Counted from the first letter of the stretch, positions 13,783-32,000 are shown. The stretch is 32,000 nucleotides of DNA from Nitrosomonas europaea (GCF_900167395.1 NZ_FUWK01000003.1:120001-152000); one strand, 5' to 3'. Notes: generated by a model from the letters alone, not told the origin. Translations and numbers: made by a program.

Positions 13783-13811
13783 TTGACAGGGCATATCGTA
13801 TCTGGTATCAA
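13783..13811 (+). promoter_or_regulatory. sigma70-type promoter candidate for the small lipoprotein gene
   Basis: TTGACA (13783..13788), a 17-nt spacer, then TATCAA (13806..13811), about 90 nt upstream of the ATG at 13900, in an AT-rich intergenic region. Confidence 0.4.
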
Positions 13812-13899
13812 ATAGATGTCTTTCTAAAAAGGGGACAGTAAGTCAGAACTGTTGGAAGAACTATATTGTGAATGTACTTTTTCTTATAGGAGACTGAAA

Positions 13900-14058
13900 A
13901 TGAAACTCGTACTCGTCATCTCAACACTGTTGTTCGCAGCTACTACATTGACTGCATGTATGGATCCCAAACCAGGTCAATATCCTCCAAGCATGTCAAT
14001 GGAACGTGATTCCATGCCTGACAATGTAGATAAAGCAGAACAAAATAGTGAGAAATAA
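13900..14058 (+). CDS. small lipoprotein (52 aa), function unknown
   Basis: MKLVLVISTLLFAATTLTAC has a signal peptide with the lipobox L-T-A-C. A strong SD (TAGGAG, 13887..13892) lies 7 nt before the ATG, and an intrinsic terminator follows directly. Start taken at the internal Met of ORF 13852..14058. Confidence 0.6.
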   Translation: MKLVLVISTLLFAATTLTACMDPKPGQYPPSMSMERDSMPDNVDKAEQNSEK

Positions 14059-16293: not shown

Positions 16294-16661
16294 GGAATGA
16301 TCAAAATTCGGTAAGGGAGCCCGGAATCTGTTGTAACTGATCCTTATCTCGGGAAATGAAGGGTTGTAACCGGTTACTTCAAAAGTTTACTTCAGCATGT
16401 AAAGACTTATCCTTTCCAGGAATCATATATATATGTTTATGGCATAAAGACGAGATCGGCAGGCCCGGCGGAAAGTTTTGCAGACGGACTGCAGCGTTGA
16501 GCTCATTGTGAAGGAGCCAGCCATTCACTGCCTCACTCGCCTTGTATCCCATCTGCGAAATACAGTGTGCGGCCATGTGGGACTTGATCAGAGGTTTCCT
16601 AAGTAAAAGCTGCATTCAAAGTTACCGGGAATGACACGGTGTCGTTTTAGAAGGATAAAAA

Positions 16662-19600
16662 ATGGGTCGATCCATTAATAAGCATGCTACGGATGATAGC
16701 AGAAGCGAATCACTGAATACTGGCACACAAGAAAGTGGTACTGACAAATCATCTTCATCTCCTGTCGCTATCGTTGGCTTTGCTTTTCGTTTTCCGGGAG
16801 ATGTAAGCGATGAAACCGATTTCTGGAACGCACTGAAACAAAAACGTGATCTCGTAACCCAGATTCCGGCAGATCGCTGGGCTGTCGATGAATTACAGCA
16901 TGATAAACGTTCGGAGCACGGCCGCAGTATTACGTTCTCGGCAGGTGTTTTATCACATATAGAAGAATTCGATGCGAGCTTCTTCGGGATTTCACCACGG
17001 GAAGCAGCGGTACTCGATCCTCAGCAGCGTCTTTTACTGGAGCTGACCTGGGAAACCATGGAAAACGCCGGAATTCCCCCTTCCTCCATGGCAGGTTCGG
17101 ATTGCGCGGTCTATGTGGGAATTTCCGGGTTTGATTATGGTATGTGCGAAGTGGATGATCTTGCTGTCATCACCTCGCACTCGATGACGGGCAATACACT
17201 CAGTATTGCCGCCAACCGTATTTCCTATGCTTTTGATTTGCACGGCCCTTCACTGGCCGTGGACACAGCCTGTTCTTCATCGCTGGTGGCGCTGCATCAC
17301 GCCTGTAATTGCCTGCGTAACGGGGAAGCCTCTACCGCTCTGGTTGGCGGAGTCAATTTATTGCTTCATCCCTATCCGTTTGTCGGATTCACCAAAGCAT
17401 CCATGCTTTCTGCCAAGGGTCGATGCAAACCTTTCGATGCTTCAGGAGACGGTTATGTGCGTTCAGAAGGTGCTGCCGTTCTGTTGCTCAAGCCTTTGGA
17501 AAAGGCGCTGGCCGATGGCGATGATGTTCATGCAGTCATTCTCTCCAGTGGAGTCAATGCCGATGGTGCCCGGAAAACCGGTATTACCATTCCCAGTAGC
17601 GATGGCCAGGCTGAATTGATGCGTGCGGTACTGTCTCGCAGTGGGCTTTCATCAAAAGAAGTTGATTTCATCGAAGCGCATGGAACCGGGACAGTAGTAG
17701 GTGATCCGGTTGAAACCAGGGCGATCGGTATGGTTTATGGTCAGGAACGTACCAGACCGTTACCCATTGGATCGGTCAAGGCCAATCTCGGTCATCTTGA
17801 ACCGGCTTCGGGCATGGCCGGCCTGATCAAAACAATACTGGCGCTCAAACACCGGGCGCTGCCACCCGCGATCCATCTGCACACACCTAACCCGCATATC
17901 GATTTCCAGGCGTTGAACCTGGAGCTGATCAGGAAATATAAGCCATTCAGTCGCAAACGGAAGAAACCACTTGTTGCCGGCGTCAATTCTTTCGGATTTG
18001 GGGGTGCCAATGCCCACGTGTTGTTAAAGGAGTTTGTTCCTCAAGATAGCAAGGCTGATACGTCATCGACCATGGAATCATTGCCGCCGCTCTTCCTGTC
18101 TGCCCGTACTGAGGCCGCTTTACGCGCTACGGCGGAGCATTACGTCGAACTGCTGAAAGGCAAATCTCCGCAGGAATTTTATGACATTGCCCATGCAGCG
18201 GCTTATCGGCGAGAGCAAATGGAAAAAAGACTGGCACTGCATACCGGCAAGGTGGATTCAACAGTCGATCTGCTCGATCGTTATGCCAAAGGTGACATGG
18301 TTTCCCGGGTTTTTGTCGAGGATGAGTTGCCGCAGAGCGGGGGAGTGGCTTTTGTCTACTCGGGAAATGGTACCCAATGGGCGGGGATGGGGCGTGCGTT
18401 GCTTGCTGAATCTCCCCGGTTCAAAGAAATTCTCAGTGAAATTGATGAAATCATGCTGCCACAGGCAGGCTTTTCACTGATTACCGAGCTGGAAGCAGAG
18501 GATACAAATTCCAGACTGGATGATACGCGTGTTGCACAACCGCTGCTTTTTGCCATCCAGGTGGGTGTTACCACATTGCTTAGAGAGCAGGGTATTGAGC
18601 CTTCAGCCGTTACAGGGCACAGCGTAGGTGAAATTGCGGCTGCATGGGCATCGGGCGCGCTGGATCTGCAACAGGCCATTCATGTCATTTGTGTTCGCAG
18701 CCAGGCACAGGGGCTGACTCGTGGAAAAGGCCGGATGGCAGCGGTAGGTCTGTCTGTCGAAGCGATACAGGAAATTATCACCACATTGGGTGTCGATGCT
18801 GAAGTGGAAATAGCCGGAATCAACAGTCCCGGCAATGTTACGCTCTCCGGCCCTCTCGAAGATTTGCAGCAAATACAGAGCGTGGCTGAATCCCGGGGCA
18901 TTTTCTTCCGGCTGCTCGATCTCGATTATGCTTTCCATAGTCGCCAGATGGATGCCATTGAAGAACCATTGATTCGTCAGCTGGGTGAACTTGCTCCTGC
19001 TTACACGGAAAGAGCCACGTTTGTTTCAACCGTTACCGGCAATGAGATTGACGGCCGTTTGCTCGATGCGGGTTACTGGTGGCGTAACGTGCGTCAACCG
19101 GTTCAGTTTGCTGCTGCGATCAATAGAATTGCCGGGCTGGGTTGCAGAATATTGATTGAAATCGGGCCACATGCGATTTTGCAGCGGTATATGGGTGAAT
19201 GTCTGGCTGCGGCTGAAGTTCAGGGGCGTGTGATCCCGACATTGCGCCGTGATGACAACGGTTTGCAGAGAATTACCGAAACCGTGCTGCGTACACAGCT
19301 TCTTGCTGAGCGGCCATCGCTACAAACTTATTTCTCTGTTCCGGGCCGGCGGGTTCGTCTGCCCAACTATCCGTGGCAACGGGAACGGCACTGGATACCG
19401 TGGACGAATGAGGGATTACATTCGCTGGATCGTCGCCGGGTACATCCACTGCTGGGCTGGCGTATTCCGGGTGTCGATACCCTCTGGGAGAATACACTCG
19501 ATCCGGTCACCTTGCCATGGCTGGCAGATCACAAGGTAGGCGGTGCTATCGTCTATCCCGGTGCTGCGTATGCCGAAATGTCACTGGCTGCTGCGCGTGA

Positions 19601-22600
19601 ATGGCTGGGAGGAAAGCATTTCACAGTAGAGCAACTCGATATCATCTCCCCGATGGTTTTTGATGGTGAACATGCACGTACCACCCATCTGATTCTCAAT
19701 CCACGTGATGGTGGATTCCAGATCAAAAGTCGCCAGCGGCTCAGCGATGACGAATGGACGCTGCACGCTTCAGGACGCATTCTGGAAGCAGTCAACAGAA
19801 TTCCTGTGGCGCGTATCGATGCGCCCGCAGTATCTGCTGAACACGTCGGGCATGAAATCCATTATCAGCGTGCATCACAGCTGGGCCTTGATTATGGCCC
19901 GGGTTTTCAAGGCGTGAGCAATATAAACATCGCAGCAGAAAGGCTTGAGGCTACTCTATCCTGCCCCGAATTACAGCATTTCGATGATTATCTGCTGCAC
20001 CCGGCAATACTGGATCTTTGCTTTCAGTCACTGATCGATTTCTTTGGTGAAGCAATCGATGCCGGGCAGGGGATCGCCTTGCTTCCCGTCAAAATGGGTA
20101 AGCTGAATTTTTGCGGCAATGGAAAAGTGGCATTCTTGCGTGCCAGACTATGTCGTCATGGTACCCGTTCCGCACTGGCGGATTTCGAACTGCTGGACAA
20201 TCAGAATAATCTGATCGCCAGTGCTTCGGCCTGCCGGTTCCGTGCTGCCCACCTCAAGCGTCACGTTCAGCAGAACATATCGAACTGGCGTATTGTTCCC
20301 TGGCTTAAGCCCCATCCGCTCGATGGTATGACCACGGCCATGCCGCCTGTAGCAGGCCTCATCGAACAAGTACGAGCACAATTCGATCGTGTCAAACATG
20401 ATCGTCATACCTTATTCAAGGAAATACTTCCACTTACCGAAGCGTTGACATTATCGTTTGCCTGGCAGGCTGTACGGCAGATTCAACAGTATCGTCCATT
20501 GGATTGGCAGCAGATTTTTGATGGATCTCATGCAACTGCCCACGCCCGCTGGCTGGCGAATCTGCTGATCACTGAAGGATTGCTGAATAAAGATGATGCC
20601 GGCCAGTGGTTTGTCACTATCGATGCGGATCTGCCTTCACCGGAAACAGTCTGGCAAACACTGCTAAATGATTTCCCGGTGTACCTGCCGCAGCTGATGC
20701 TCATGGGGAGAGTCGGTCAGCAATTGCCGGCATTGTTGTGTGGAGAAACTGATGCGCTGAAATTGCTGAATGAGTTGAAACATTCACCTGTGGCTGAAAT
20801 GCGTTACCACGATGATCCGGTTTATCTGGGGATGCGGCTTGCTCTCGAGGAAATATTCAGAAATCTGGCAGGCAGCTGGCCTGTATCACGCCGGCTGCGA
20901 ATTCTGGAAATCACCGCTGGTTCCAGTGAACTGCCGAAAATACTGACGGGTTCATTACCCGAAGATCGTTTCGACTATGTTCTGGCCTTGCCGGATGAAG
21001 CTATGCAGGCACGCCAGCAGATCGAATATCAGGAGGATGCCAGCATTGTCGTGGCACGGTATGAGCCTGCCACACTGAAACTGTCTGCTGATCGTCGGTT
21101 ACCTGATGCATTCGATGTCATTGTCCTGCATCACGCATTACATCGGACAAACAGCCCACACACAGCGCTGGCTCAAATCCGGCATCTGCTGGCTGCCGGG
21201 GGCATTCTTTTGCTGGCTGAACAGCATTCAGACTGGAGTACCAATTTTCTGGAAGGGATCGATCCCGGCTGGTGGCGTCAGCGCAACAAAACGCCAGATC
21301 TACCAGTATCTCCATTGTTATCGCCCGCAACGTGGCAACAATTGCTGAAGGATGCGGGATTTACGGATACAGAAACATTCTTTGAGCCCGCTGCAGAAGG
21401 TCTGGCCGAGGGAGCTTATCTGTTGCTTGCCAGATGCCCCGCACGAGATAGTGCCATTATTCCCGAGCCCGTCACTGCCTCGTGGTTACTGGTAGCAGAC
21501 GAATCTTCCGCAACCCTGGCCAGGCACCTGAGTAACCGGCTGCAATCATCGGGACAGCAGGTAACCATCACCAGCCGGATAGATGATGATCTTTTGCAGA
21601 ATACTGACCACATCGTTCATCTGCCGGGCTGGAACGATACTCCTGACCAGGCTGCGGATACGGTAACCCGGTTGATGGAGGATGTGAAGCTGCTGGCTGC
21701 CCGGATCGGGAAAACACCTCAATTCTGGCTCGTGACCCGTGGCGGTACGCTCATTAGCGGATGCCCGGCCGAGTCGGAATCCAGTCCGGCACAGTCTGCG
21801 CTCTGGGGATTCGGCCGTGTCGTCATGAACGAATATCCTCAGCTCGCCTGCACACTCATCGATCTGGTTTGTAACCCGGCAACCGTCAATCTGGCAGACC
21901 GGCTGGTGAATGAACTGCTTGTCCCGGATGGCAGCAATGAAATTGTGCTTTCCGCAGCAGCGCGCTACTGCCTGGTCATGCAGGAAGCAACGAACCAGCA
22001 GATCAGGACGACAGAGCAGTCAGAGAAAAAGGATGAGCGATTTCATCTTGATTTTCACGTCCCCGGACAATTGCGCAACCTCGTCTGGTTGCCTGATGTT
22101 AAGCGTCAACTGGGTGATGACGAGGTTGAAGTATGTACCCGGGCCACCGGCCTCAATTTCCGTGATGTCATGTACCTCATGGGCCTGCTTCCGGATGAGG
22201 CCGTCGAAAATGGTTTTGCAGGCGCCAGCCTCGGGCTGGAATTTTCAGGGATCATCAGCCGGGTTGGGGCACGTGTAAAAGGCCTGTTACCCGGTGATGC
22301 GGTCATGGGATTCGGTTCTTCCTGCTTTGCCAGCCATGTCATCACGCGAGCAGATGCCGTAGCACCTATGCCCGAGAACTGGTCGTTCGAGGCCGCAGCG
22401 ACTGTACCCACCGTTTTTCTGACCGTCTATTACGCGCTCAAGCAGCTGGCAGCTCTGCAGCCGGGAGAGAGGGTACTGATTCACGGTGCAGCAGGGGGAG
22501 TCGGTATCGCTGCCATCCAGCTTGCACGTTATCTTGGCGCGGAAATTTATGCCACTGCAGGCAGTGATGAGAAACGGGATTTCGTCAAATTGCTGGGAGC

Positions 22601-24296
22601 GGATCATGTGTTCGATTCACGCAGCCTGGCATTTGCTGACGATATTCTTGATGCCACTGCAGGTGAAGGAGTGGATGTGGTTCTCAATTCACTTGCGGGT
22701 GAAGCCATGCGTCGCAGTATCGATGTGTTGAAACCCTTTGGCCGTTTTCTTGAACTGGGCAAACGCGATTTTTTTGAAAATACCCCGGTTGGCTTGCGTC
22801 CCTTCAAGAACAATATCAGCTATTTCGGCATCGATGCGGATCAGTTACTGACTGCGCGTCCCAGGCTTGCCGTACAACTCTTTCATGAGGTCATGGCACT
22901 GTTTCGTGAACAGGCACTGGCACCACTGCCTTATCGGGTATTTTCAGCCAATCGCATTACGGATGCTTTCCGTGTGATGCAGCAAGCACGCCATATCGGC
23001 AAAATTGTCGTGTCTCTGGCAGATGCACGGCCAGATATCGAACAGCCTTTACAACCTGTTCCGGCAATACGATTTGAAAGAAACAGTACATGGCTGGTCA
23101 CCGGCGGGCTTTCCGGTTTTGGCCTGGAATCTGCCCGCTGGCTGGCAGAACGGGGTGTCGATCACTTAGTGCTGGCAGGGCGCCGTGGTATGGATACGCC
23201 AGGAGCAAAGGAAATCATCGAAACTTTCGCGGTTCAAGGGGTAAAAGTGATCGCACAGGCGTGCGACATCACTCACGCTGCAGCGGTTGATACGCTGATC
23301 GAACGTATCGGTAAAACACTGCCTCCTCTCAAAGGTGTGCTGCATGCAGCAGCGGTTTTCGACGATCAGCTGATTTCCAGTCTCGATCAGAAGCGCATCA
23401 GCAATGTCATGGATGCCAAACTGCTGGGCGCCTGGCATTTGCACCAGGCCACGCTCGGCACGCCGCTGGATTATTTCATTCTGTACTCCTCGGTTACTAC
23501 CGCAATCGGAAATCCGGGGCAGGCCAATTATGTGGCTGCCAATGCAGGGCTCGAAGGGCTGGCGGCTATGCGTCGGCACATGGGTTTGCCAGCCACCTGC
23601 ATTGCCTGGGGACCTGTCAGCGACACGGGATACCTCGCGCGTAATCAAGCCGTCAGAGACAGTCTCGAACAGCGCCTCGGTAAACCGCCTCTTCCGGCTG
23701 CAGAAGCGCTCACTCAACTGGATGTTGCACTCAATGACGAAACCGGATTTGTTATTCCTGCTGACTTCGACTGGAATACGCTGAGCCATCTGCTGCCTTC
23801 AGCGAGCGGTAATCGTTTTGCTATTCTCAACCGGAACAGACGCAGCACCTCTCAAACTACCGAATCGATTGATATTCGGACGTTCATTATTGGAAAAACC
23901 CGGGCTGAGGTAACAGAAATCGTACGTGGCTTTGTAGTGGAGGAGGTTGCGCAGATCCTGAGCATCAGCCCGGATCGTATCGAGTCAGGGCGCTCCCTGC
24001 ATGATCATGGTATGGATTCGCTGATGGCGGTCGAGCTTGCTCTGGGGCTGGAGCGGCGCTTTGGTATCCAGTTACCGGTCATGATGCTCAACGATGCGCC
24101 CACGATTCATACAGTCACGGCACGTATCGTCGAGAAACTGACAAATAAAGGGGATATGCCGGAGGGAGAACAATCAGTCAGCCAGGTCACCGAGTTTATC
24201 CGTCAGCACGGAGAGGAATTGATGCCGGAAGAAATCGACATCCTGAGTGAGGATGTACGCCATTTTGCTCAACAAGGAACAAGTCTAATCGCATGA
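16662..24296 (+). CDS. type I polyketide synthase, single fully reducing module: KS-AT-DH-MT-like-ER-KR-ACP, no TE
   Basis: 2544 aa; SD AGAAGGA 8 nt upstream.
Domains, with my own residue and nt estimates:
- KS aa ~34-456 (16761..18029): DTACSSS Cys204, EAHGTGT His340, NLGHLE His378.
- AT aa ~562-860 (18345..19241): GHSVGE Ser654, Arg679, YAFHS.
- DH aa ~925-1200 (19434..20261): HPLLG, LADHKVGGAIVYPGAAY, YGPGFQ, HPAILDLCFQ.
- MT-like aa ~1395-1595 (20844..21446): motif I reads LEITAGSS.
- ER aa ~1795-2120 (22044..23021): LIHGAAGGVGIAAIQLA.
- KR aa ~2140-2325 (23079..23636): TGGLSGFG, YSS, GQANYVAAN.
- ACP aa ~2405-2490 (23874..24131): GMDSL Ser2453.
A 55-aa tail follows the ACP. Confidence 0.97.
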   Translation: MGRSINKHATDDSRSESLNTGTQESGTDKSSSSPVAIVGFAFRFPGDVSDETDFWNALKQKRDLVTQIPADRWAVDELQHDKRSEHGRSITFSAGVLSHIEEFDASFFGISPREAAVLDPQQRLLLELTWETMENAGIPPSSMAGSDCAVYVGISGFDYGMCEVDDLAVITSHSMTGNTLSIAANRISYAFDLHGPSLAVDTACSSSLVALHHACNCLRNGEASTALVGGVNLLLHPYPFVGFTKASMLSAKGRCKPFDASGDGYVRSEGAAVLLLKPLEKALADGDDVHAVILSSGVNADGARKTGITIPSSDGQAELMRAVLSRSGLSSKEVDFIEAHGTGTVVGDPVETRAIGMVYGQERTRPLPIGSVKANLGHLEPASGMAGLIKTILALKHRALPPAIHLHTPNPHIDFQALNLELIRKYKPFSRKRKKPLVAGVNSFGFGGANAHVLLKEFVPQDSKADTSSTMESLPPLFLSARTEAALRATAEHYVELLKGKSPQEFYDIAHAAAYRREQMEKRLALHTGKVDSTVDLLDRYAKGDMVSRVFVEDELPQSGGVAFVYSGNGTQWAGMGRALLAESPRFKEILSEIDEIMLPQAGFSLITELEAEDTNSRLDDTRVAQPLLFAIQVGVTTLLREQGIEPSAVTGHSVGEIAAAWASGALDLQQAIHVICVRSQAQGLTRGKGRMAAVGLSVEAIQEIITTLGVDAEVEIAGINSPGNVTLSGPLEDLQQIQSVAESRGIFFRLLDLDYAFHSRQMDAIEEPLIRQLGELAPAYTERATFVSTVTGNEIDGRLLDAGYWWRNVRQPVQFAAAINRIAGLGCRILIEIGPHAILQRYMGECLAAAEVQGRVIPTLRRDDNGLQRITETVLRTQLLAERPSLQTYFSVPGRRVRLPNYPWQRERHWIPWTNEGLHSLDRRRVHPLLGWRIPGVDTLWENTLDPVTLPWLADHKVGGAIVYPGAAYAEMSLAAAREWLGGKHFTVEQLDIISPMVFDGEHARTTHLILNPRDGGFQIKSRQRLSDDEWTLHASGRILEAVNRIPVARIDAPAVSAEHVGHEIHYQRASQLGLDYGPGFQGVSNINIAAERLEATLSCPELQHFDDYLLHPAILDLCFQSLIDFFGEAIDAGQGIALLPVKMGKLNFCGNGKVAFLRARLCRHGTRSALADFELLDNQNNLIASASACRFRAAHLKRHVQQNISNWRIVPWLKPHPLDGMTTAMPPVAGLIEQVRAQFDRVKHDRHTLFKEILPLTEALTLSFAWQAVRQIQQYRPLDWQQIFDGSHATAHARWLANLLITEGLLNKDDAGQWFVTIDADLPSPETVWQTLLNDFPVYLPQLMLMGRVGQQLPALLCGETDALKLLNELKHSPVAEMRYHDDPVYLGMRLALEEIFRNLAGSWPVSRRLRILEITAGSSELPKILTGSLPEDRFDYVLALPDEAMQARQQIEYQEDASIVVARYEPATLKLSADRRLPDAFDVIVLHHALHRTNSPHTALAQIRHLLAAGGILLLAEQHSDWSTNFLEGIDPGWWRQRNKTPDLPVSPLLSPATWQQLLKDAGFTDTETFFEPAAEGLAEGAYLLLARCPARDSAIIPEPVTASWLLVADESSATLARHLSNRLQSSGQQVTITSRIDDDLLQNTDHIVHLPGWNDTPDQAADTVTRLMEDVKLLAARIGKTPQFWLVTRGGTLISGCPAESESSPAQSALWGFGRVVMNEYPQLACTLIDLVCNPATVNLADRLVNELLVPDGSNEIVLSAAARYCLVMQEATNQQIRTTEQSEKKDERFHLDFHVPGQLRNLVWLPDVKRQLGDDEVEVCTRATGLNFRDVMYLMGLLPDEAVENGFAGASLGLEFSGIISRVGARVKGLLPGDAVMGFGSSCFASHVITRADAVAPMPENWSFEAAATVPTVFLTVYYALKQLAALQPGERVLIHGAAGGVGIAAIQLARYLGAEIYATAGSDEKRDFVKLLGADHVFDSRSLAFADDILDATAGEGVDVVLNSLAGEAMRRSIDVLKPFGRFLELGKRDFFENTPVGLRPFKNNISYFGIDADQLLTARPRLAVQLFHEVMALFREQALAPLPYRVFSANRITDAFRVMQQARHIGKIVVSLADARPDIEQPLQPVPAIRFERNSTWLVTGGLSGFGLESARWLAERGVDHLVLAGRRGMDTPGAKEIIETFAVQGVKVIAQACDITHAAAVDTLIERIGKTLPPLKGVLHAAAVFDDQLISSLDQKRISNVMDAKLLGAWHLHQATLGTPLDYFILYSSVTTAIGNPGQANYVAANAGLEGLAAMRRHMGLPATCIAWGPVSDTGYLARNQAVRDSLEQRLGKPPLPAAEALTQLDVALNDETGFVIPADFDWNTLSHLLPSASGNRFAILNRNRRSTSQTTESIDIRTFIIGKTRAEVTEIVRGFVVEEVAQILSISPDRIESGRSLHDHGMDSLMAVELALGLERRFGIQLPVMMLNDAPTIHTVTARIVEKLTNKGDMPEGEQSVSQVTEFIRQHGEELMPEEIDILSEDVRHFAQQGTSLIA

Positions 24297-25627
24297 ACAA
24301 ACTCAGTCTTACCCGGAAAGCCAGAACACATCTCATAGATCATATTCTTGGCAGAAAAATGGAAGTAGCGGGTGGTGCTGCTCCTGCGTCGGCGGAGTGT
24401 CCAACCCGTTACTCGTCGATTCCTGATGCCTTTACCCGTTTTGACCGTTTCCCCGGCTATGAAAAAATGCTGGTTCCCAAGGCAGCATCCGAGCGATTGG
24501 GTCTGGTAAATCCGTTTTTCCGGTCACACGATGGCGTGGCGGGAGCAACTACGCTCATCGGTGGACGTGAATTCATCAATTTTTCCAATTACAGCTACCT
24601 TGGACTGGCCGGCCACCCTGCCGTGAGCCGAGCGGCAAAAGAAGCTATCGATCGCTATGGTACATCGGCATCTGCAAGCAGACTCGTGGCAGGTGAGCGA
24701 CCGGCTCAGCGCAAACTGGAAGAAGCGCTGGCTAATTTATATGAGGTGGATGACTGCATCGTATTTGTCAGCGGACATGCGACCAACGTCAGCACGATCG
24801 GCTGTCTCTTCGGCCCGAAAGATCTGGTGATTCACGACAGTCTCATCCATAACAGTGTATTGCAGGGGATTCAGCTTTCAGGCGCAGCCCGTCGTTCATT
24901 TCCACATAATGACATGGCGGCACTTGAACAAATCCTGGCTGAGATCCGCGCGCAGTTCGAACGTGTGCTGATCGTTACCGAAGGGCTTTACAGCATGGAT
25001 GGTGATATTCCGGATCTGCCGGAACTCATCCGCATCAAACAGCACCATAAAGCCTTTCTGATGGTGGATGAAGCGCATTCCCTGGGAGTACTGGGAGAGA
25101 CAGGAAAAGGAGTACGGGAACACTTCGGTATCCAAGGCAAAGCAGTGGATATCTGGATGGGCACGCTCAGCAAGACATTGGCTGGATGTGGCGGTTACAT
25201 TGCCGGAGAACGGGCGCTTGTCGAGCACCTGAAATATGCAGCACCAGGTTTTGTCTACAGTGTCGGTATGGCGCCCTCCCTGGCGGCTGCTTCTCTGGAA
25301 GCGTTGCGTATCATGCAGCGAGAACCGGAGCGGGTAGCACGGTTACGTGAACGAGGGCAGCAATTTCTGGAGCTGATGCAATCTCTGGGCGTCAATACCG
25401 GCCTTGCTCAGGGCTATGCCGTCATTCCCGCCATCATTGGCAGCTCGCTCAAAGCGGCCCGGCTGTCAAACCAGTTTTTCGATGCCGGTATCAATGTCCA
25501 GCCGATCATCCATCCCGCGGTTGAAGAGAAAGCCGCAAGACTCAGATTTTTCCTGTCAGCCATGCATACCGATCAGCACGTACGGTATACCTGTGAAGTC
25601 ATGAAGAAACTGACGGGTCTCCACTAA
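24293..25627 (+). CDS. alpha-oxoamine synthase family PLP enzyme (8-amino-7-oxononanoate synthase / serine palmitoyltransferase-like)
   Basis: 444 aa. NPFFRSHDGVAGATTLIGGREFINFSNYSYLGLAGHP, SGHATN (PLP-stacking His), MVDEAHSLG (Asp/His) and GTLSKTLAGCGGY (Schiff-base Lys) are the AOS-family motifs. The ATG overlaps the PKS TGA (ATGA at 24293..24296). The N-terminal ~70 aa precede the conserved core. Confidence 0.92.
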   Translation: MNKLSLTRKARTHLIDHILGRKMEVAGGAAPASAECPTRYSSIPDAFTRFDRFPGYEKMLVPKAASERLGLVNPFFRSHDGVAGATTLIGGREFINFSNYSYLGLAGHPAVSRAAKEAIDRYGTSASASRLVAGERPAQRKLEEALANLYEVDDCIVFVSGHATNVSTIGCLFGPKDLVIHDSLIHNSVLQGIQLSGAARRSFPHNDMAALEQILAEIRAQFERVLIVTEGLYSMDGDIPDLPELIRIKQHHKAFLMVDEAHSLGVLGETGKGVREHFGIQGKAVDIWMGTLSKTLAGCGGYIAGERALVEHLKYAAPGFVYSVGMAPSLAAASLEALRIMQREPERVARLRERGQQFLELMQSLGVNTGLAQGYAVIPAIIGSSLKAARLSNQFFDAGINVQPIIHPAVEEKAARLRFFLSAMHTDQHVRYTCEVMKKLTGLH

Positions 25628-25653
25628 TCCTTTTGCCTGTTAACAAGAAAAAT

Positions 25654-26844
25654 ATGAACACGGAGAATCACTTTATTCGTATCGGATTATTGCTGGCAGG
25701 AATCATGCTGATAAGTGCGCTGTCTGGTTGCGCAACTCAGCCTGACTGGGTTTCTTCCAGCGGGGCAAGCCGGGAGCAAATCCTGAAAAAGAGCGAACCC
25801 GGCCAGATTGGAGGGATCGGGTTGGTCGGTGTCGACGACACGCTTGCCAGAAAACTTTTTGAAGCGAAAAAACTGGGCCAGTTTGCCGATATTTTCCCGA
25901 GTTCATCCACCAATAACTACATCATCGGCCCGGGTGACGTGATCGATGTCACCATCTGGGAAGCTCCCCCCGCCATGCTGTTTGGCGCAATCGTTCTCGA
26001 CCCTTCAGCCGGCCCGACGACCACGCGAGGGGTTACCTTTCCGGAACAAATGGTGACGTCGGACAGCACAATTGCCATACCGTTTGCCGGCCGGGTTTCC
26101 GTCAGGGAGCGTACTGCCCAGGAGATTGAAAGAGAAATCATCGTACGGCTGTACGGTAAAGCCAACCAGCCCCAGGTACTGGTGCGGGTCATCAAAAACA
26201 ATACATCCAACGTCACGATCGTGGGCGAAGTCAATAACAGCACACTGATGGCACTGACACCCAAAGGCGAAAGACTGCTCGATGCGCTGGCCATAAGCGG
26301 TGGAGTCAAACAATCCATCAATCGTATGGCAGTTCAGCTATCACGCGCCAATGTGACAGCAACCATGGCGCTTGACTCGGTCATTCGGGATCCGAAGCAG
26401 AATATCCTGCTCAAACCCGGCGATGTGATTACTGCCTTGTATCAGCCGCAGAGTTTTTCGGTATTGGGGGCAACCGGTAAGAATGAAGAAGTACTCTTCG
26501 AAGCTCAGGGTATTTCTCTGGCACAGGCACTGGCGCGTTCGGGCGGCCTGGCGGATAACCGTGCCGATGCACGCGGTGTATTCATATTCCGGTTTGAAGA
26601 TGCAAAACTGGTCGATGCCGGTCATTCGTTGACTGCCGGAGCCGATGGGACTGTGCCAGTGGTGTATCAGGTCGATTTGCGTGATCCCGCATCATTCTTC
26701 GTCACCCAGAATTTTCCGGTCCAGAATCGCGATGTGATTTATGTCGCCAATTCTCCGGAAGCTGAATTCAACAAATTCATGAAGCTGCTGATATCCGTTG
26801 CGATGCCCGGCCTGACGATCAACCGAATGTTCCTGCTGAATTGA
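25654..26844 (+). CDS. outer-membrane polysaccharide export lipoprotein (OPX; Wza/CtrA/KpsD family)
   Basis: Start placed at the ATG at 25654 (MNTENHFIRIGLLLAGIMLISALSGC, lipobox L-S-G-C) rather than the TTG at 25633. Poly_export signature IIGPGDVIDVTIWE...P is followed by soluble-ligand-binding-type repeats (ILLKPGDVITAL, VQNRDVIYVANSP). Confidence 0.85.
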   Translation: MNTENHFIRIGLLLAGIMLISALSGCATQPDWVSSSGASREQILKKSEPGQIGGIGLVGVDDTLARKLFEAKKLGQFADIFPSSSTNNYIIGPGDVIDVTIWEAPPAMLFGAIVLDPSAGPTTTRGVTFPEQMVTSDSTIAIPFAGRVSVRERTAQEIEREIIVRLYGKANQPQVLVRVIKNNTSNVTIVGEVNNSTLMALTPKGERLLDALAISGGVKQSINRMAVQLSRANVTATMALDSVIRDPKQNILLKPGDVITALYQPQSFSVLGATGKNEEVLFEAQGISLAQALARSGGLADNRADARGVFIFRFEDAKLVDAGHSLTAGADGTVPVVYQVDLRDPASFFVTQNFPVQNRDVIYVANSPEAEFNKFMKLLISVAMPGLTINRMFLLN

Positions 26845-26880
26845 TGACTCGACCCAATCCACTGCTGTTTTCTTTCAGGT

Positions 26881-27672
26881 ATGGCTATGGCTGAAGCTCG
26901 AAATCCGCTGCTTGTTTCCTTTGCTGTCTGGAAGGCGATTTTTCTGCGTGAAGCACTCGACCGGCTGTTCGATATGCGGGCTGCATGGTTCTGGCTGCTG
27001 GTCGAACCCGTTCTGCACATCGGCTTCCTGGTTTTCATCTTTACCGTCATTCGTATGCGTACGGTTGGCAATGCCGATGTCGCGGTATGGATCATCGTCG
27101 GTATGCTGGCGTTCTTTCTGTTCCGGCGGACAGCAGTTCAGGTGACCTATGCGGTCGATTCCAACCGGCCCTTGTTCACTTATCGCCAGGTCAAACCGTT
27201 TGATCCGGTCCTTGCGCGTGCGGTGCTGGAAGCTTTTCTGATGTCGATTATTTCGATCATCATAATAGGTACCGCGATCCTGCTGGGTCACGAAGCATGG
27301 CCATACGATGCTTTACTGGTTTTGCAGGCCAACTTCGGGCTGTGGCTGTTTGGTATTGGCTATGGTCTGGTTGCATCGGTATTGATGGAGCTTGTCCCGG
27401 AAATGGAACATGTCCTCAAGATTCTGATGCTGCCGCTGTACCTGATTTCCGGCGTCATCTTGCCTTTGGCTGCCATACCCCAGCCTTATCTCGATCTGTT
27501 GCTGCTGAATCCGATTGCACATGGGCTTGAACTGGCGCGTGCAGGCTTTTTTCCCTACTACCACACCGTGCCGGGCCTCAGCATGGAATATCTTTATGCA
27601 TGGGGTATCTCCGGCATATTTCTCGGTTTGATACTGTACCGCCGCTTTGCTTTACAGCTGGTGATGAGGTGA
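26881..27672 (+). CDS. kpsM: capsule-type ABC-2 transporter permease (KpsM/CtrC family)
   Basis: 263 aa, collinear with E. coli KpsM as I recall it: ...FLREALDRLFDMRAAWFWLLVEPVLHIGFLV..., ...LFTYRQVKPFDPVLARAVLE..., ...LLLLNPIAHGLELAR...; six hydrophobic segments. Confidence 0.92.
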   Translation: MAMAEARNPLLVSFAVWKAIFLREALDRLFDMRAAWFWLLVEPVLHIGFLVFIFTVIRMRTVGNADVAVWIIVGMLAFFLFRRTAVQVTYAVDSNRPLFTYRQVKPFDPVLARAVLEAFLMSIISIIIIGTAILLGHEAWPYDALLVLQANFGLWLFGIGYGLVASVLMELVPEMEHVLKILMLPLYLISGVILPLAAIPQPYLDLLLLNPIAHGLELARAGFFPYYHTVPGLSMEYLYAWGISGIFLGLILYRRFALQLVMR

Positions 27673-27748
27673 ATACGAAAATGGAAATAAAGTTGAAAAT
27701 TGTCATGATGTTAAGGCAACAAACAAGCGGTCAACTGGGGTTTTCAGG

Positions 27749-28411
27749 ATGATTGTTATCGAAGATGTATATAAGCGCTATAAAACAGACCATGGCCCTG
27801 GTAAATGGATATTACAAGGCGTCAATCTGACGATTCCGCGTAATGTCAATGTCGGTCTGATCGGTTCAAATGGCGCGGGCAAATCTACCTTGCTGCGTAT
27901 CATCGGCGGTATCGATCACCCTAATAAAGGAAAAGTGGAACGTCGCTGCCGGCTTTCCTGGCCAATGGGGCAGGGTGGACTGGAACCGACGCTGACCGGA
28001 CGGCAGAATGCCAAATTCGTTTGCCGGTTGCATGGCCACCAGGATGATCTTCCTGAACGGCTGATATTCATACAGGATTTTTCCGGACTGAAAGATGCTT
28101 TCGATGAGCCGGTGAACACCTACTCATCCGGGATGCGCTCGCGCCTGCAGTTTGCAATGTCACTTGCGTTCGATTTCGATATTTATATTTCTGATGAAGT
28201 GACTGCTGCAGGGGATGCCGCTTTTCGTGACAAGGCAGCCGCCGCTTTCAAAGGGATGACCAATCGCGCCGGACTGATCATGGTCGCTCACAGCGAAAGC
28301 ACACTCAGGCAATTTTGTGAGGCCGGTATTTTGCTTTATCAGGGTAAAGCGCAGTGGTTCGACAAAATCGAGGAAGCCTTCAAAGCGTATAAGGACACCG
28401 TACAAAAATGA
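27749..28411 (+). CDS. kpsT: capsule-type ABC transporter ATP-binding protein (KpsT/CtrD family)
   Basis: MIVIEDVYKRYKT..., Walker A GSNGAGKSTLLRIIGGID, KpsT-type signature YSSGMRSRLQFAMSLAF, Walker B IYISDEVTAAGD, H-loop MVAHS. The length (220 aa) matches KpsT. Confidence 0.93.
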   Translation: MIVIEDVYKRYKTDHGPGKWILQGVNLTIPRNVNVGLIGSNGAGKSTLLRIIGGIDHPNKGKVERRCRLSWPMGQGGLEPTLTGRQNAKFVCRLHGHQDDLPERLIFIQDFSGLKDAFDEPVNTYSSGMRSRLQFAMSLAFDFDIYISDEVTAAGDAAFRDKAAAAFKGMTNRAGLIMVAHSESTLRQFCEAGILLYQGKAQWFDKIEEAFKAYKDTVQK

Positions 28412-29574
28412 CGCAACTCCAGCAAAGTGTAATTGAATCTCAGCCAGGCAAACTAAGTGATTATCTCGGACATACCAGGAGAAATCGGTTTTCCATACGG
28501 CTGTTTTCGGGCCTGATAGGGTTCATTCTGGTATTGGCTGTCATGGCCACCGGTTACTGGCTGGTTTTTGCCTCCGATCGCTATGTTTCGGAAGCAAGCG
28601 TGATCATTCGTAAAACGGACTCAGTGACTGCCCCCAGCTTTGATCTGTCCATGCTGATTGCCGGTGTGGCCGGAGTGAACCGTGCGGATCAGTTATTATT
28701 GCGGGAATATCTGCTTTCAGTGGATATGCTCAAAAAACTCGATACAGAGCTCGATTTACATGCGCACTACAGTGATGAGCACTATGATCTTCTTTCACGC
28801 ATGTGGCTGAAGGATATGGAATGGTTTCATCGCCATTATCTTTCACGGGTTTCAATCGAATACGATGATTATGCCGGCGTGCTCCGGATCAACGCCCAGG
28901 CTTATGATCCTGAAATAGCACGTGCTATTTCAAACCTGCTGGTACGCGAGGGTGAGCGTTACATGAACCAGATCAGCCATGAACTGGCAGAAACACAGGT
29001 CAGCTTCCTGACTACCCAGGTGAATCTGGCTCAACTGCGCTTCCAGCAGGTCAGACAGAAATTACTGGCCTATCAGAACAAGAAAGGGCTGCTTTCACCC
29101 CAGGCAACCGTGGAGAGCCTCAATACCCTCATTGCCAAACTGGAGGAGCAGCGTGCTCAGCTCAAAACGCAGCTGGCATCTTTACCCAGGACGCTGGATC
29201 GTAACCACCCCAATTTGGTAATGCTCAGGCAATCCCTGGCGGCCATCGATCGGCAGATTACCGATGAAAAAGCAAAACTTGCCAATCCCACAGGAAAAAC
29301 CCTGAATATCACGATGGAAGAATTCCAGCGGCTGGAAATGGAAGTTACCTTTGCGCAAGAACTTTATAAAGCGGCGCTCACTGCACTGGAAAAAGGCAGG
29401 ATCGATGCCACACGCATGCTGGATAAAGTTTCCGTACTGCAGGCACCCACCCTTCCTGAATATCCGATGGAGCCCCGGCGTATCTATAACACCCTGGTTA
29501 CACTGCTGTTTGCACTGATGCTGGCTGGAATCCTGAAGCTGCTGGAAGGCATCATACTCGACCATGTAGATTGA
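28408..29574 (+). CDS. kpsE: capsule export inner-membrane/periplasmic adaptor (KpsE/CtrB, PCP-3 family)
   Basis: 388 aa. N-terminal TM (LIGFILVLAVMATGYWLVF) followed by DRYVSEASVIIRK, SIEYDDYAGVLRINAQAYDPEIA, a coiled-coil middle, and a C-terminal hydrophobic helix ending ...LKLLEGIILDHVD, collinear with E. coli KpsE as I recall it. The ATG overlaps the kpsT TGA (ATGA at 28408..28411). Confidence 0.88.
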   Translation: MTQLQQSVIESQPGKLSDYLGHTRRNRFSIRLFSGLIGFILVLAVMATGYWLVFASDRYVSEASVIIRKTDSVTAPSFDLSMLIAGVAGVNRADQLLLREYLLSVDMLKKLDTELDLHAHYSDEHYDLLSRMWLKDMEWFHRHYLSRVSIEYDDYAGVLRINAQAYDPEIARAISNLLVREGERYMNQISHELAETQVSFLTTQVNLAQLRFQQVRQKLLAYQNKKGLLSPQATVESLNTLIAKLEEQRAQLKTQLASLPRTLDRNHPNLVMLRQSLAAIDRQITDEKAKLANPTGKTLNITMEEFQRLEMEVTFAQELYKAALTALEKGRIDATRMLDKVSVLQAPTLPEYPMEPRRIYNTLVTLLFALMLAGILKLLEGIILDHVD

Positions 29575-29630: not shown

Positions 29631-29796
29631 AGTTCAAGGCAAAAATCGGTGATGCAAGCAAAGCGTAGCGAACAGCCGTAAGGCTGGCCCGTAGGGCGAG
29701 GCGCTGGCGCCGAGTAAAAAGCGGAGTTTATATGTAATAAATGAGCATTTTGAGCTGATTTTTAACGCAGAAATGGCAACACAGGTAGTTTTTCAG
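29631..29796. repeat. intergenic repeat, copy A (upstream of galU); carries a 64-nt GC-rich insertion relative to copy B
   Basis: Blocks shared with copy B:
- AGtTCAAgGCAAAAaTCgGtG;
- GGAGTTTATA;
- ATAAATGAGCATTTTGAGC (19/19);
- CGCAGAAAT;
- GCAA.ACAG;
- GTTTTTCAG.
Positions 29652..29715 have no counterpart in copy B and contain a CAGCC-GTAA-GGCTG hairpin (29673..29686). A perfect 10-bp hairpin (CAGAGATTCC tcag GGAATCTCTG, 29794..29817) abuts the 3' end. Confidence 0.8.
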
Positions 29797-29924: not shown

Positions 29925-30815
29925 ATGAAAATTCGTAAAGCGGTTTTTCCGGTGGCGGGGCTGGGTACTCGTTTTTTACCAGCCACCAAGGCCAGCCCCA
30001 AGGAGATGCTGCCGGTGGTGGATAAGCCACTCATACAATATGCTGTGGAAGAAGCCTGGGCTGCTGGTATTACCGAAATGATATTCGTCACGGGTCGCAG
30101 CAAGCGCAGCATTGAAGATCATTTTGATAAAGCGTATGAGCTGGAATCCGAGCTGGAGCGCCGGGGAAAAACCGAGATGCTGCAGTACGTGCGCAATCTG
30201 TTGCCCGACGATATGAAGTGTGTGTATATCCGCCAGTCTGAAGCACTGGGTCTGGGCCACGCGGTGCTATGCGCCCAGCCGGCGGTGGGTGATGAACCTT
30301 TTGCTGTGTTACTGGCTGACGATTTACTTGAAGGTGACCCTGTCGTGATACGCCAGATGGTGGATGTGTACGAGTACTACAAGTGCTCGGTGCTGGGTGT
30401 GCAGCAGGTGCCGCGTGAAGATACGCGCAGCTATGGCATAGTGGCCAGCCAGCCGATTCGTGATGATCTGGAAGCAGTACAGTTCATTGTGGAAAAACCT
30501 GATCCGGAAGAGGCTCCTTCCACCATGGCAGTGGTTGGACGTTATGTACTCACCCCGCGCATTTTCCATCACCTGATACGGTTGGGCAAAGGCACCGGGA
30601 GCGAGATACAGTTGACCGACGGTATTGCTGCGTTGATGCAGGAAGAGCAGGTGCTGGCCTATCGTTACAAAGGCCAGCGTTACGACTGTGGCAGCAAGAT
30701 AGGCTATTTGGAAGCCACCTTGGCTATGGCGCGTAAGCACCCTGAAGTGGGGGCGCAGTTTGAACAGCTGTTACAGTCGTTTCAGCACCAGGGAAACTCT
30801 GAAGAACGTCAGTGA
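29925..30815 (+). CDS. galU: UTP--glucose-1-phosphate uridylyltransferase
   Basis: [68 protein letters not shown]...LLADD...VEKP...GRYVL is the canonical GalU N-terminus and motif set. Start at the internal Met of ORF 29868..30815. Confidence 0.95.
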
Positions 30816-30822
30816 AGTAATC

Positions 30823-30928
30823 AGCTCAAAGCAAAAGTCTGCGAGAAAGTGGAGTTTATACGACGTGATAAATGAGCATTTTGAGCGTAACTTCCAGCGC
30901 AGAAATAGCAATACAGATGGTTTTTCAG
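30823..30928. repeat. intergenic repeat, copy B (downstream of galU), same orientation as copy A
   Basis: AGcTCAAaGCAAAAgTCtGcG...GGAGTTTATAcgacgtgATAAATGAGCATTTTGAGCgtaacttccagCGCAGAAATaGCAAtACAGatgGTTTTTCAG. Aligned by eye to 29631..29796. The left arm matches at 16/21 and the core blocks are identical. Confidence 0.8.
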
Positions 30929-31126
30929 GTGCCATGGCAGCGTGCGTTTTATCCTTTTGGTTTTCGCCTTTCCCAGCGATTTTTTTGTCCGACGGGATCT
31001 CACAGAGTGGCCTGATAAAAAATGAAAGCTGTAAATAGCGGGAGAATATATTGCTATTTCAACAATAACTGATATGAGAAGTTATGCGAAATTACCCGTT
31101 TGTACAAAATCGTTAAAGGATGAATG

Positions 31127-31339
31127 ATGTTTTTGCTGTTCACTAACGAGATCATTGAACGTATCAGCAATGTTTTACTTCTTTATCTGGTAACTTCAAC
31201 CGTCGTTGATGAAGTAGTGCCTGGATCGGCTGCGACGTGGAGAAAAAAGTTATATCTCATCTTTTCCCTCATTTTTTACTACAGTATCTGGGTGAGCACG
31301 CTAAAGAAATTACAGGCCATAGGGAAAAGACGTTATTAG
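31127..31339 (+). CDS. hypothetical small membrane protein (weakly supported)
   Basis: ORF of ~70 aa in AT-rich DNA. AAGGA at 31116..31120 lies 6 nt before the ATG at 31127 (an alternative ATG is at 31124). Two hydrophobic stretches (NVLLLYLVTSTVV, LYLIFSLIFYYSIWV). I recognise no family, and overlapping alternative ORFs exist. Confidence 0.25.
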   Translation: MFLLFTNEIIERISNVLLLYLVTSTVVDEVVPGSAATWRKKLYLIFSLIFYYSIWVSTLKKLQAIGKRRY

Positions 31340-31735
31340 CATGGCTTGTCTTGCATGAGCCGGTCTTTAGAAAAACGTTGATTAAATCAATAAATATCAT
31401 TAATGATGCATCGCGACAGGTTGCCATAGGCGTAGGCGCTCCCCGGAAAGAAATCAGAATCAACCACTTGAATTAATTCTGGAATACTCATCGACACCAA
31501 CAGCTGCTATTACGCTCTGGCAGGATCAAACGCGGGCGGCGCGGCACAACTGCTCTCGTCAGAATAAAGTTGCAAGCCTATCAGAAGACTGTGGTCTGCC
31601 CTCCATTTACTATTTACCAGAAATAACGGGAAGAAATTATCGAAGTACAGCAGGATAAAATTACTACGCAGATTTAGAGCGATCCAGAGAAGAAATTATA
31701 GAGTCCTGCTTAGAACAAGAAGAAAACCTTCTTCT

Positions 31736-32000
31736 ATGTTGGATAGCAACAAAGGCACTTCCAAAGTCATTGTTGCTCCAAAAATTTTTGATATAAACAA
31801 AAATGAAAACCGTGGAAATTTAACAATATTTCTTGGGAAGCTGAGAAAATATTTCACACATAATGGATCACATGAAATAACTATCGATTTTACACAAACA
31901 GAGAAATTTATTGCTGCGGGAACTCTGTTATTTTATTCAGAATTAGCTTATTTAAAGCAGTTTATAAATAACGAAACAAGGCTCAGGTATATACCTCCAA
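31736..32000 (+). CDS. hypothetical protein, 5' part (open to the right edge of the window)
   Basis: Absent from the ORF track because it has no stop. My translation from the ATG at 31736 is open for 88 codons to the window end: MLDSNKGTSKVIVAPKIFDINKNENRGNLTIFLGKLRKYFTHNGSHEITIDFTQTEKFIAAGTLLFYSELAYLKQFINNETRLRYIPP. All three minus-strand frames at the window end hit stops within ~50 nt. No convincing SD, and the start is uncertain because the frame is open from 31568. Confidence 0.35.
   Translation, partial: MLDSNKGTSKVIVAPKIFDINKNENRGNLTIFLGKLRKYFTHNGSHEITIDFTQTEKFIAAGTLLFYSELAYLKQFINNETRLRYIPP

Follow-up and report, generated by a model that had tools for sequence, protein, structure and literature searches.

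A minimal polyketide synthase-associated capsule export cassette in Nitrosomonas europaea that may prime or anchor its polymer on an aminolipid

The DNA analysed here (hereafter the window) is a 32,000-nucleotide stretch of Nitrosomonas europaea (GCF_900167395.1, NZ_FUWK01000003.1:120001-152000), in which a polyketide synthase (PKS) gene and an alpha-oxoamine synthase (AOS) gene directly precede an OPX gene and kpsM, kpsT and kpsE. On balance, and with little more than even confidence, we read this six-gene block as the N. europaea minimal form of the PKS-associated, ABC-transporter-dependent capsule loci typified by RkpA/WcbR and RkpG/WcbT, in which an aminolipid made by the PKS and the AOS would prime or anchor the exported polymer. 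A preliminary description of the window had proposed a lipid anchor from the gene content. The proposal is reasonable, but it restates an older hypothesis: the products of rkp-1 were proposed to make, and to modify, a lipid carrier specific to the secretion of K-antigen capsular polysaccharide (KPS) (Kiss 1997, as cited in PMC4881576). The locus itself already carries a WcbR-type annotation. The wcb clusters of Burkholderia and the rkp clusters of Rhizobium and Nitrosomonas are homologous, each with a type I PKS (wcbR/rkpA) and capsule genes, and a Nitrosomonas accession served as a WcbR reference in that comparison (PMC3908369). The lipid-carrier idea is thus not new, and Nitrosomonas was already listed among these clusters. 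What is new, as far as gene comparisons indicate, is a cassette that is minimal, phylogenetically coherent and apparently spread widely by transfer, without the partner enzymes that usually accompany the pair.

The six open reading frames (ORFs) from the PKS gene to kpsE (16662-29574) are co-directional and free of internal stops, and they coincide exactly with the genes of the preliminary description (Table 1). The junctions it had listed were all reproduced: the PKS stop and the AOS start share an ATGA (24293-24296), 26 nt separate the AOS gene from the OPX ATG, 36 nt lie between the OPX gene and kpsM and 76 nt between kpsM and kpsT, and the kpsE start overlaps the kpsT stop by a second ATGA. 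A mechanical ORF list places the OPX start at an upstream TTG (25633), while the gene callers used in relatives choose the ATG. The claim that the block holds no terminator hairpin also stood. Terminator-like matches (20) were not in excess of those expected from shuffled sequence (17.1 +/- 4.7), and none fell in the three intergenic gaps. Profile searches (Pfam, NCBIfam) agreed with all six proposed gene identities, and the PKS of N. europaea ATCC 19718, identical in sequence, is deposited as CAD85300.1 and named 'Putative type I polyketide synthase WcbR' in UniProt. The physical coupling of the PKS-AOS pair to the exporter genes is real and conserved across genera, and the six-gene arrangement is far from chance, since its order recurs in many of them.

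The PKS has the features given for RkpA/WcbR-type enzymes in PMC3908369, being a monomodular protein of about 2,500 aa with the order ketosynthase (KS), acyltransferase (AT), dehydratase (DH), enoylreductase (ER), ketoreductase (KR) and acyl carrier protein (ACP) and with DPQQR and HGTGT intact. Further motifs were found in the KS (DTACSS), the AT (GHSVG), the DH (H957xxxGxxxxP), the ER (HGAAGGVG) and the ACP (GMDSL), so that these five domains look active. Between the DH and the ER lies a methyltransferase-like domain whose motif I for S-adenosylmethionine binding is degenerate (ILEITAGSS). This domain is probably a structural pseudo-methyltransferase, and a working C-methyltransferase in the PKS was considered unlikely on the same grounds. 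The Pfam domain scan detected no thioesterase or reductase release domain. The PKS is 43% identical over its full length to the PKS of the Caballeronia p2 replicon, and 33% (residues 35-1569) and 42% (residues 1686-2516) identical to S. meliloti RkpA; RkpA, a Paraburkholderia wcb-type PKS and the Aquitalea PKS share its architecture and size. The RkpF part of RkpA is a genuine ACP (PMC9386255).

The AOS is a fold-type I enzyme dependent on pyridoxal 5'-phosphate (PLP), as indicated by the PF00155 match (162 bits) and the motifs GTLSKTL, with the PLP lysine, DEAHS and SGHATN. Alignment gave 55% identity with S. meliloti RkpG and 57% with the AOS of Caballeronia p2, and the nearest solved structures are bacterial serine palmitoyltransferases (SPT; E = 1.7e-64) and the Thermus AOS/KBL. 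Its scores stayed below the equivalog cut-offs of bioF (346 vs 426), KBL (306 vs 460) and SPT (304 vs 640), and likewise of 5-aminolevulinate synthase (ALAS). Judged by model cut-offs, the AOS would thus fall outside every characterised subfamily (BioF, KBL, SPT, ALAS, CqsA). The resemblance to wcbR/wcbT that had been pointed out in the preliminary description held. It is seen in the UniProt name and in the homologous PKS and AOS of wcb-ordered Paraburkholderia and S. meliloti rkp-1 loci, the comparison having been made through Paraburkholderia and Caballeronia representatives and RkpA/RkpG.

The four exporter proteins are homologs of the Kps/Ctr system. In the OPX protein a hydrophobic signal segment leads to a lipobox (LSG|C), with Poly_export and SLBB domains behind it, and the protein is 63% identical to the Caballeronia p2 OPX and 31.5% to S. 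meliloti RkpU. KpsM has at least five hydrophobic segments, and its best NCBIfam model (NF050053, CapPschTportKpsM) scored 122 bits, under the cut-off of 300, a score that shows a family-level homolog and apparently not an equivalog. KpsT contains the Walker A (GSNGAGKST), signature (YSSGMRSRL) and Walker B (IYISDE) motifs. KpsE matched TIGR01010 (BexC/CtrB/KpsE) with 274 bits, also under the cut-off (437.5), and has hydrophobic segments at residues 27-45 and 358-376. Identities to the Caballeronia p2 proteins were 64% for KpsM, 72% for KpsT and 59% for KpsE. All four showed weak, sub-threshold similarity to VexA-D, lower than to the Kps/Ctr models. Together they make up the export part of a Kps/Ctr ABC-dependent capsule system, namely KpsM with KpsT, a PCP-3 adaptor and an OPX protein.

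In order to place the block among its relatives, one genome per GTDB species was scanned with the AOS, which gave 79 loci that were analysed by tblastn and ORF-level phmmer. Pfam-annotated contexts of further homologs supplemented the survey, and a plasmid collection was also searched at the protein level, which gave the S. meliloti rkp-1 region and plasmids of Burkholderiaceae and Pseudomonas. The identical order PKS-AOS-OPX-KpsM-KpsT-KpsE, called the minimal cassette or type B from here on, was found in several Nitrosomonas, in Aquitalea, in Methylobacillus, in a metagenome-assembled genome (MAG) of Thiobacillaceae and in gut Desulfovibrio. A Thiotrichales contig ended after PKS-AOS-OPX, Comamonas had PKS-AOS-KpsM-T-E followed by a larger OPX, Zoogloea had PKS-AOS-KpsE-M-T, and Caballeronia carried the cassette with extra genes. 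The 4-nt ATGA overlap of the PKS and AOS genes was kept in S. meliloti, Aquitalea, Methylobacillus, Thiobacillaceae and Desulfovibrio. Co-occurrence of the pair with kps genes, proposed earlier as a test, was borne out: capsule genes adjoin the pair in all loci with an AOS that shares 60% identity or more with that of N. europaea. More distant alphaproteobacterial pairs often stand without adjacent capsule genes, in keeping with the scattered rkp regions of S. meliloti, and actinobacterial AOS genes adjoin other PKS types. The AOS family is very abundant in Betaproteobacteria, with more than 70% identity across many genera. In a neighbour-joining tree without bootstrap, the AOSs of minimal cassettes formed one clade, whose sister comprised Burkholderiaceae and Pseudomonas AOSs that sit with a short-chain dehydrogenase/reductase (SDR), an RkpI-like gene and, Caballeronia excepted, KpsS. 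Together the six genes are passed on as one cassette.

The partner genes of classic loci were then sought around the block. The statement of the preliminary description that KpsS and KpsC are not present is true locally, as the window and the N. europaea chromosome for about 10 kb downstream of it contained neither. KpsF and KpsU were absent from the same regions and from the type-B loci examined. Neither an RkpH/WcbP-type SDR (tblastn, phmmer) nor an RkpI/WcbQ-type protein of the sulfatase/lipoteichoic acid (LTA)-synthase family gave a match in the window or in type-B loci, the SDR search covering every one of them; an RkpI-like gene was present in the comparison loci L084, L085, L093 and L094. 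No RkpJ/WcbO homolog was found in the window, and PF05159, the family to which S. meliloti RkpJ was verified to belong, was absent among the genes called in the roughly 10 kb downstream. An LpxC-like gene of the kind seen in Burkholderiaceae loci was missing from the window. Unannotated ORFs after kpsE in Aquitalea and Methylobacillus were considered as hidden KpsC or KpsS and ruled out, because they had no Pfam match and carried a different domain, here called X. The literature searches returned no paper linking a PKS with KpsS and KpsC, and for Nitrosomonas together with kpsC they returned nothing on this locus and only a general statement on KpsS/KpsC and the Vi antigen.

Downstream of kpsE, N. 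europaea has a galU-like gene, conserved at this position in the Nitrosomonas loci L001, L002, L086 and L088 and followed by a UDP-glucose dehydrogenase gene in L086; it is possibly a precursor-supply gene. An AT-rich mobile insertion begins behind it and continues for about 7 kb in the chromosome (L088:12600-19300; window coordinate = L088 + 18407), where it encodes a 317-aa protein and its DUF4325 partner, an integrase (rve) together with three toxin-antitoxin pairs (PIN/MazE, HTH_37/Gp49). At the same site a 93%-related Nitrosomonas (L086) carries IS630 fragments, the UDP-glucose dehydrogenase gene and an H-NS gene. Since the two differ in their genes downstream of galU, the site is a variable hotspot. 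Beyond the insertion, about 8.6 kb past kpsE and on the same strand (start at about 38185 in window-equivalent coordinates), lies a gene for a 1217-aa protein that combines an X domain with GT2 and TagF-like (Glyphos_transf) modules; a close full-length variant (P0285) was found on a 4.6-kb contig. It is plausibly the polymerase of a teichoic-acid-like capsule. The window itself contains no glycosyltransferase gene. The inspection of flanking sequence for such genes and for kpsS/kpsC, which had been suggested at the outset, ended with the Kps pair absent over about 10 kb downstream and a GT2/TagF-like gene present. In relatives, wecB/wecC, which supply UDP-N-acetylmannosaminuronic acid (UDP-ManNAcA), follow the cassette in Aquitalea, Caballeronia, Desulfovibrio and Methylobacillus, large glycosyltransferases lie past it in Aquitalea, Caballeronia and Desulfovibrio, and a 1488-aa glycosyltransferase stands directly after kpsE in Thiobacillaceae. 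This succession of cassette and sugar-precursor and glycosyltransferase genes matches, on gene content, the layout of a capsule 'region 2'.

The X domain recurs in these neighbourhoods. It spans about 190-200 aa, has no Pfam match, forms the first 200 or so residues of the N. europaea 1217-aa protein (X-domain locus L088:19778-21166) and is 50-66% identical across genera, standing alone or fused to GT2/TagF-like, GT4 or FkbM-methyltransferase modules. The gene that comes next after kpsE encodes it in Aquitalea, Caballeronia and Desulfovibrio, and it lies within the giant glycosyltransferase of Thiobacillaceae and near the cassette in Methylobacillus and a Nitrosomonas MAG. It also occurs in a Kps locus of Burkholderia territorii, where no PKS or AOS gene was found in the 3.8 kb upstream of the OPX gene. 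The AlphaFold model of a 394-aa stand-alone X protein (pLDDT 85) is all-helical, with a coiled coil, a core resembling tetratricopeptide repeats (TPR) and a single helix of about 130 residues, and a Foldseek comparison with the PDB gave weak TPR matches only. We therefore rejected X as the missing priming enzyme. The model suggests that the likelier role of X is that of a scaffold or ruler linked with this lineage of exporters.

Read as an aminolipid-dependent capsule locus, the block would work as follows. The fully reducing monomodular synthase would iterate like a type I fatty acid synthase and, on its own ACP, build an acyl chain that is long and largely saturated. Because the PKS has no thioesterase, chain release would fall to the translationally coupled AOS, which would join the chain to a small amino acid in a PLP-dependent Claisen condensation with decarboxylation. 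The product would be a long-chain alpha-amino ketone, that is, an aminolipid resembling a sphingoid base, which, possibly after further modification, would serve as primer and/or membrane anchor for the polysaccharide at the cytoplasmic face of the inner membrane. The polymer would probably be teichoic-acid-like in N. europaea, given the downstream GT2/TagF-like enzyme, and ManNAcA-rich in the relatives. KpsM and KpsT would translocate the lipid-linked polymer, and KpsE and the OPX lipoprotein would take it on through periplasm and outer membrane. The presence of an SDR, an LTA-synthase-like protein and KpsS in classic loci suggests that the amino ketone could there be reduced to an amino alcohol, receive a phospho-head group and be extended with 3-deoxy-D-manno-octulosonic acid (Kdo). 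In the minimal cassette these steps would be either unnecessary or supplied in trans. In the known systems, rkp-1 is needed for KPS secretion in S. meliloti and S. fredii (PMC4881576), and wcbR knock-outs lower capsular polysaccharide I (CPS-I) in B. pseudomallei (PMC3735121).

Several points weigh against this account. The RkpH-type SDR, the LTA-synthase/sulfatase-family protein and KpsS of classic loci are not here, and their absence means that either the pathway differs in N. europaea or the helpers are encoded elsewhere. Our literature search found no chemically identified product of any RkpA/RkpG or WcbR/WcbT pair. The one lipid terminus that has been reported for a rhizobial KPS is described as a phospholipid anchor in the title of Fraysse 2005 (cited in PMC5539429), and such an anchor would not obviously need a polyketide aminolipid. 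In N. europaea the cassette has no adjacent glycosyltransferase gene and the mobile insertion intervenes before the candidate polymerase, so that the locus could be partly decoupled from it.

The absence of the partner enzymes can be taken in two ways. We put forward tentatively, as the bolder of them, that the minimal cassette, usually with an X protein, might be a self-sufficient, horizontally moving module that anchors or primes capsules on an aminolipid without the KpsS/KpsC Kdo linker, and thus a second exception after Vi. Such a module would be widespread in Betaproteobacteria and would have reached Gammaproteobacteria and gut Desulfovibrio. Alternatively, KpsS/KpsC, the SDR and the RkpI-like protein might be encoded elsewhere in the genome, the PKS-AOS lipid being one ingredient of a Kdo-linked anchor as in wcb and rkp. 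The sister clade and the rhizobial pairs, which sit with an SDR, an LTA-synthase-like gene and KpsS (except in Caballeronia) and often with KpsC, KpsF and KdsAB, speak for this, and so does S. meliloti itself, whose capsule genes are split over distant regions and replicons (PMC7902896). Nevertheless, more than 10 type-B loci contained no gene with a Capsule_synth domain in the 6-10 kb on either side, and several of them hold complete sets of sugar-precursor and glycosyltransferase genes beside the exporter. Classic group 2/3 loci, for their part, keep kpsS and kpsC within the locus. Helpers acting in trans are therefore somewhat doubtful in our view.

It is improbable that the product of the PKS-AOS pair is itself the exported cargo, as the preliminary description had allowed, or that it serves separately as a membrane lipid or a signal, for instance a sphingolipid-like compound or an alpha-amino/hydroxy-ketone autoinducer, its linkage to the exporter genes then reflecting co-regulation. 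This possibility draws on the window being free of glycosyltransferases, on the serine palmitoyltransferases among the nearest solved structures of the AOS, and on the fact that AOS enzymes also make autoinducers, the N. europaea AOS giving a weak match to the CqsA-type model PRK07179. That match, however, lies far below those to bioF, KBL and SPT. KpsM, KpsT and KpsE with an OPX protein are exporters of polymers, the cassette of relatives directly precedes wecB/wecC and giant glycosyltransferase genes, and in N. europaea the gene with X, GT2 and TagF-like modules follows on the same strand; the lipid as cargo is thus unlikely. A separate canonical spt/acpR cluster for sphingolipids is also present in Nitrosomonas (PMC9386255). 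That the N. europaea locus is a silent or non-functional remnant, uncoupled from its polymerase region by the insertion after galU, is very unlikely: the integrase and toxin-antitoxin genes that separate galU from the GT2/TagF-like gene and the IS630 fragments and other downstream genes of the 93%-related Nitrosomonas are what such a history would leave, but none of the six ORFs is shortened or interrupted by a stop, their catalytic motifs are intact, and 89-99% conservation with the same synteny among Nitrosomonas lineages indicates purifying selection.

Upstream, the block is separated from the divergent sbcD gene by a leader that the preliminary description had called AT-rich. Its length of 368 nt was right, while its composition is only mildly so (45% GC, against 52.6% for the block). 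Parts of the leader recur as conserved blocks in four further Nitrosomonas loci, compared with which the N. europaea leader is longer by roughly 100 nt in its 3' half. One conserved block contains a perfect palindrome, a candidate regulator binding site (Table 1). Within the 368 nt, no Rfam element was found, nor an ops/JUMPstart element at up to 1 mismatch; a promoter scan, which gave fewer sigma-70-like sites than shuffled sequence and none in the leader, is uninformative. At the other end of the block, a short repeat brackets galU (families D1 and D2), with one copy, about 63 nt overall, in each of the intergenic regions beside the gene and 87-95% identity over cores of 22 and 31 nt, and it may be a REP-like or regulatory element.

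Table 1. Positions of the features discussed, counted from the first nucleotide of the window unless a locus handle or residue numbers (aa) are given.
Feature	Position	Strand	Description
Divergent sbcD/PKS intergenic region (leader)	16294..16661		368 nt, 45% GC
Perfect 12-nt palindrome GTAACCGGTTAC	16366-16377		In Nitrosomonas-conserved leader block; candidate regulator binding site
RkpA/WcbR-type monomodular type I PKS/FAS	16662..24296	+	2544 aa; Pfam, motifs, homology
PKS domain KS	aa 33-406		Pfam
PKS domain AT	aa 564-876		Pfam
PKS domain DH	aa 928-1196		Pfam
PKS methyltransferase-like domain	aa 1410-1571		Pfam
PKS domain ER	aa 1818-2117		Pfam
PKS domain KR	aa 2143-2320		Pfam
PKS domain ACP	aa 2425-2488		Pfam; followed by a tail of ~55 aa
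RkpG/WcbT-type AOS	24293..25627	+	444 aa; Pfam Aminotran_1_2
OPX lipoprotein, RkpU/WcbC/CtrA/Wza class	25654..26844	+	396 aa; Poly_export + SLBB
KpsM-type ABC-2 permease	26881..27672	+	263 aa; ABC2_membrane
KpsT-type ABC ATPase	27749..28411	+	220 aa; ABC_tran
KpsE/CtrB/BexC-type PCP-3 inner-membrane/periplasmic adaptor	28408..29574	+	388 aa; TIGR01010
Short repeat bracketing galU, copy 1	29734-29796	+	Families D1, D2
GalU-like UTP-glucose-1-phosphate uridylyltransferase	29925..30815	+	NTP_transferase
Short repeat bracketing galU, copy 2	30865-30928		Families D1, D2
AT-rich mobile insertion, start	31000..32000		38% GC; composition
X-domain loci	L080:15205-17223; L085:29243-31726; L092:10001-11185; L083:15263-19729; L082:17589-19163; L002:19105-20055; L091:10001-11983		

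Other observations concern the first half of the window. A full-length match to Rfam RF02350, the Nitrosomonas small RNA psRNA6, lies at 13721-14044 on the minus strand (342 bits), between sbcC and an alpha/beta-hydrolase gene. The FadL/TodX model is split over two plus-strand ORFs, with profile positions 17-225 (N-terminal) in 8999-9760 and 281-421 (C-terminal) in 9809-10312, which looks like one gene broken by a stop or frameshift. An ORF for a chemoreceptor with the order PAS-PAS-PAS-MCP (6635-8314, minus strand) overlaps by 49 nt an upstream 155-aa PAS-only ORF (8266-8733, minus strand), and the two may be parts of one longer receptor that a frameshift has divided, or the start may have been set wrongly. 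A triple-CheW protein (5112-6635) is encoded directly after the chemoreceptor ORF with a 1-nt overlap.

In capsules of ABC-transporter systems the lipid end is considered to serve as the export signal and is regarded as a near-universal lyso-phosphatidylglycerol-oligo-Kdo structure made by KpsS/KpsC, on which the Vi antigen is the only variation recognised by the Whitfield laboratory (PMC8760489). A PKS/AOS anchor independent of KpsS/KpsC would, if true, be notable for that reason. The minimal cassette occurs in many culturable, non-pathogenic bacteria and would offer a cleaner system in which to ask which lipid is made and if this lipid could stand in for the Kdo glycolipid. The suggestion that the locus is experimentally tractable is doubtful for N. 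europaea, a slow-growing nitrifier, while Aquitalea, Comamonas and Methylobacillus carry the same cassette. To our knowledge, the PKS and AOS genes of the B. pseudomallei CPS-I and rhizobial K-antigen loci have gone unexplained for some 30 years, and an answer on the minimal-cassette lipid would inform capsule biology in melioidosis and legume symbiosis. As the N. europaea locus was already annotated and mentioned in the literature, the value of the present analysis lies in its comparative framing and not in the discovery of the block.

Among known systems, S. meliloti rkp-1 (rkpU, rkpA[-F], rkpG, rkpH, rkpI, rkpJ) resembles the N. europaea block in its large synthase, the 4-nt overlap with the AOS gene and the adjacent OPX gene, and differs in having the SDR RkpH, the sulfatase/LTA-synthase-like RkpI, the KpsS-type RkpJ and KpsF alongside. 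The exporter directly adjoins the PKS-AOS pair in N. europaea, whereas in S. meliloti the counterparts of KpsMTE, rkpRST, are found apart from it in the rkp-3 region (PMC7902896). Regarding the S. meliloti Ak57 record used (CP090106.1), it is labelled plasmid pSymB, yet it is 3.7 Mb long with the chromosomal rkp-1 and is evidently the chromosome; rkpI is unannotated in it, although an intact 446-aa sulfatase/LTA-synthase-like ORF is present (L084:22115-23455). The Burkholderia wcb system, viewed through Paraburkholderia dioscoreae pII and Caballeronia insecticola p2, shares the homologous PKS and AOS. Unlike the N. europaea block, wcb-type loci of Burkholderiaceae also have an SDR gene, an LTA-synthase-like gene and, between the PKS and AOS genes, an LpxC-like gene. 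The Paraburkholderia order is KpsS, SDR, LTA-synthase-like, PKS, LpxC-like, AOS, which we take to be that of B. pseudomallei wcbO-P-Q-R-S-T. This locus holds both KpsS and KpsC, which are lacking here, and the Pseudomonas locus likewise has a KpsC-like gene together with KpsF, KdsA and KdsB. In Caballeronia, genes for an X protein, wecB, wecC and a giant glycosyltransferase lie downstream.

The E. coli group 2 and Neisseria Ctr loci have in common with N. europaea KpsM, KpsT, KpsE and an OPX protein, and an export block beside variable polymer genes. In contrast, N. europaea has an OPX lipoprotein and the PKS and AOS, and locally neither KpsS/KpsC nor KpsF/KpsU. The pairing of a synthase with an AOS has parallels outside capsule biology, since fungal highly reducing PKSs of the fumonisin type form a chain-release pair with an AOS. 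The bacterial sphingolipid SPT with its dedicated ACP (PMC9386255) similarly joins a carrier-bound acyl chain and an amino acid into an amino-ketone, but the N. europaea AOS belongs to the capsule-linked RkpG clade and scores below the SPT cut-off. Finally, the Salmonella Vi system has no PKS or AOS, and yet, like N. europaea at the local level, it is an ABC-transporter capsule without KpsS/KpsC, with a dedicated alternative lipid terminus. The Vi terminus is an acylated N-acetylhexosamine (HexNAc), in the making of which the acyltransferase VexE takes part. In its title, Liston 2016 (cited in PMC8760489) describes the lipid anchor of Vi as unique.

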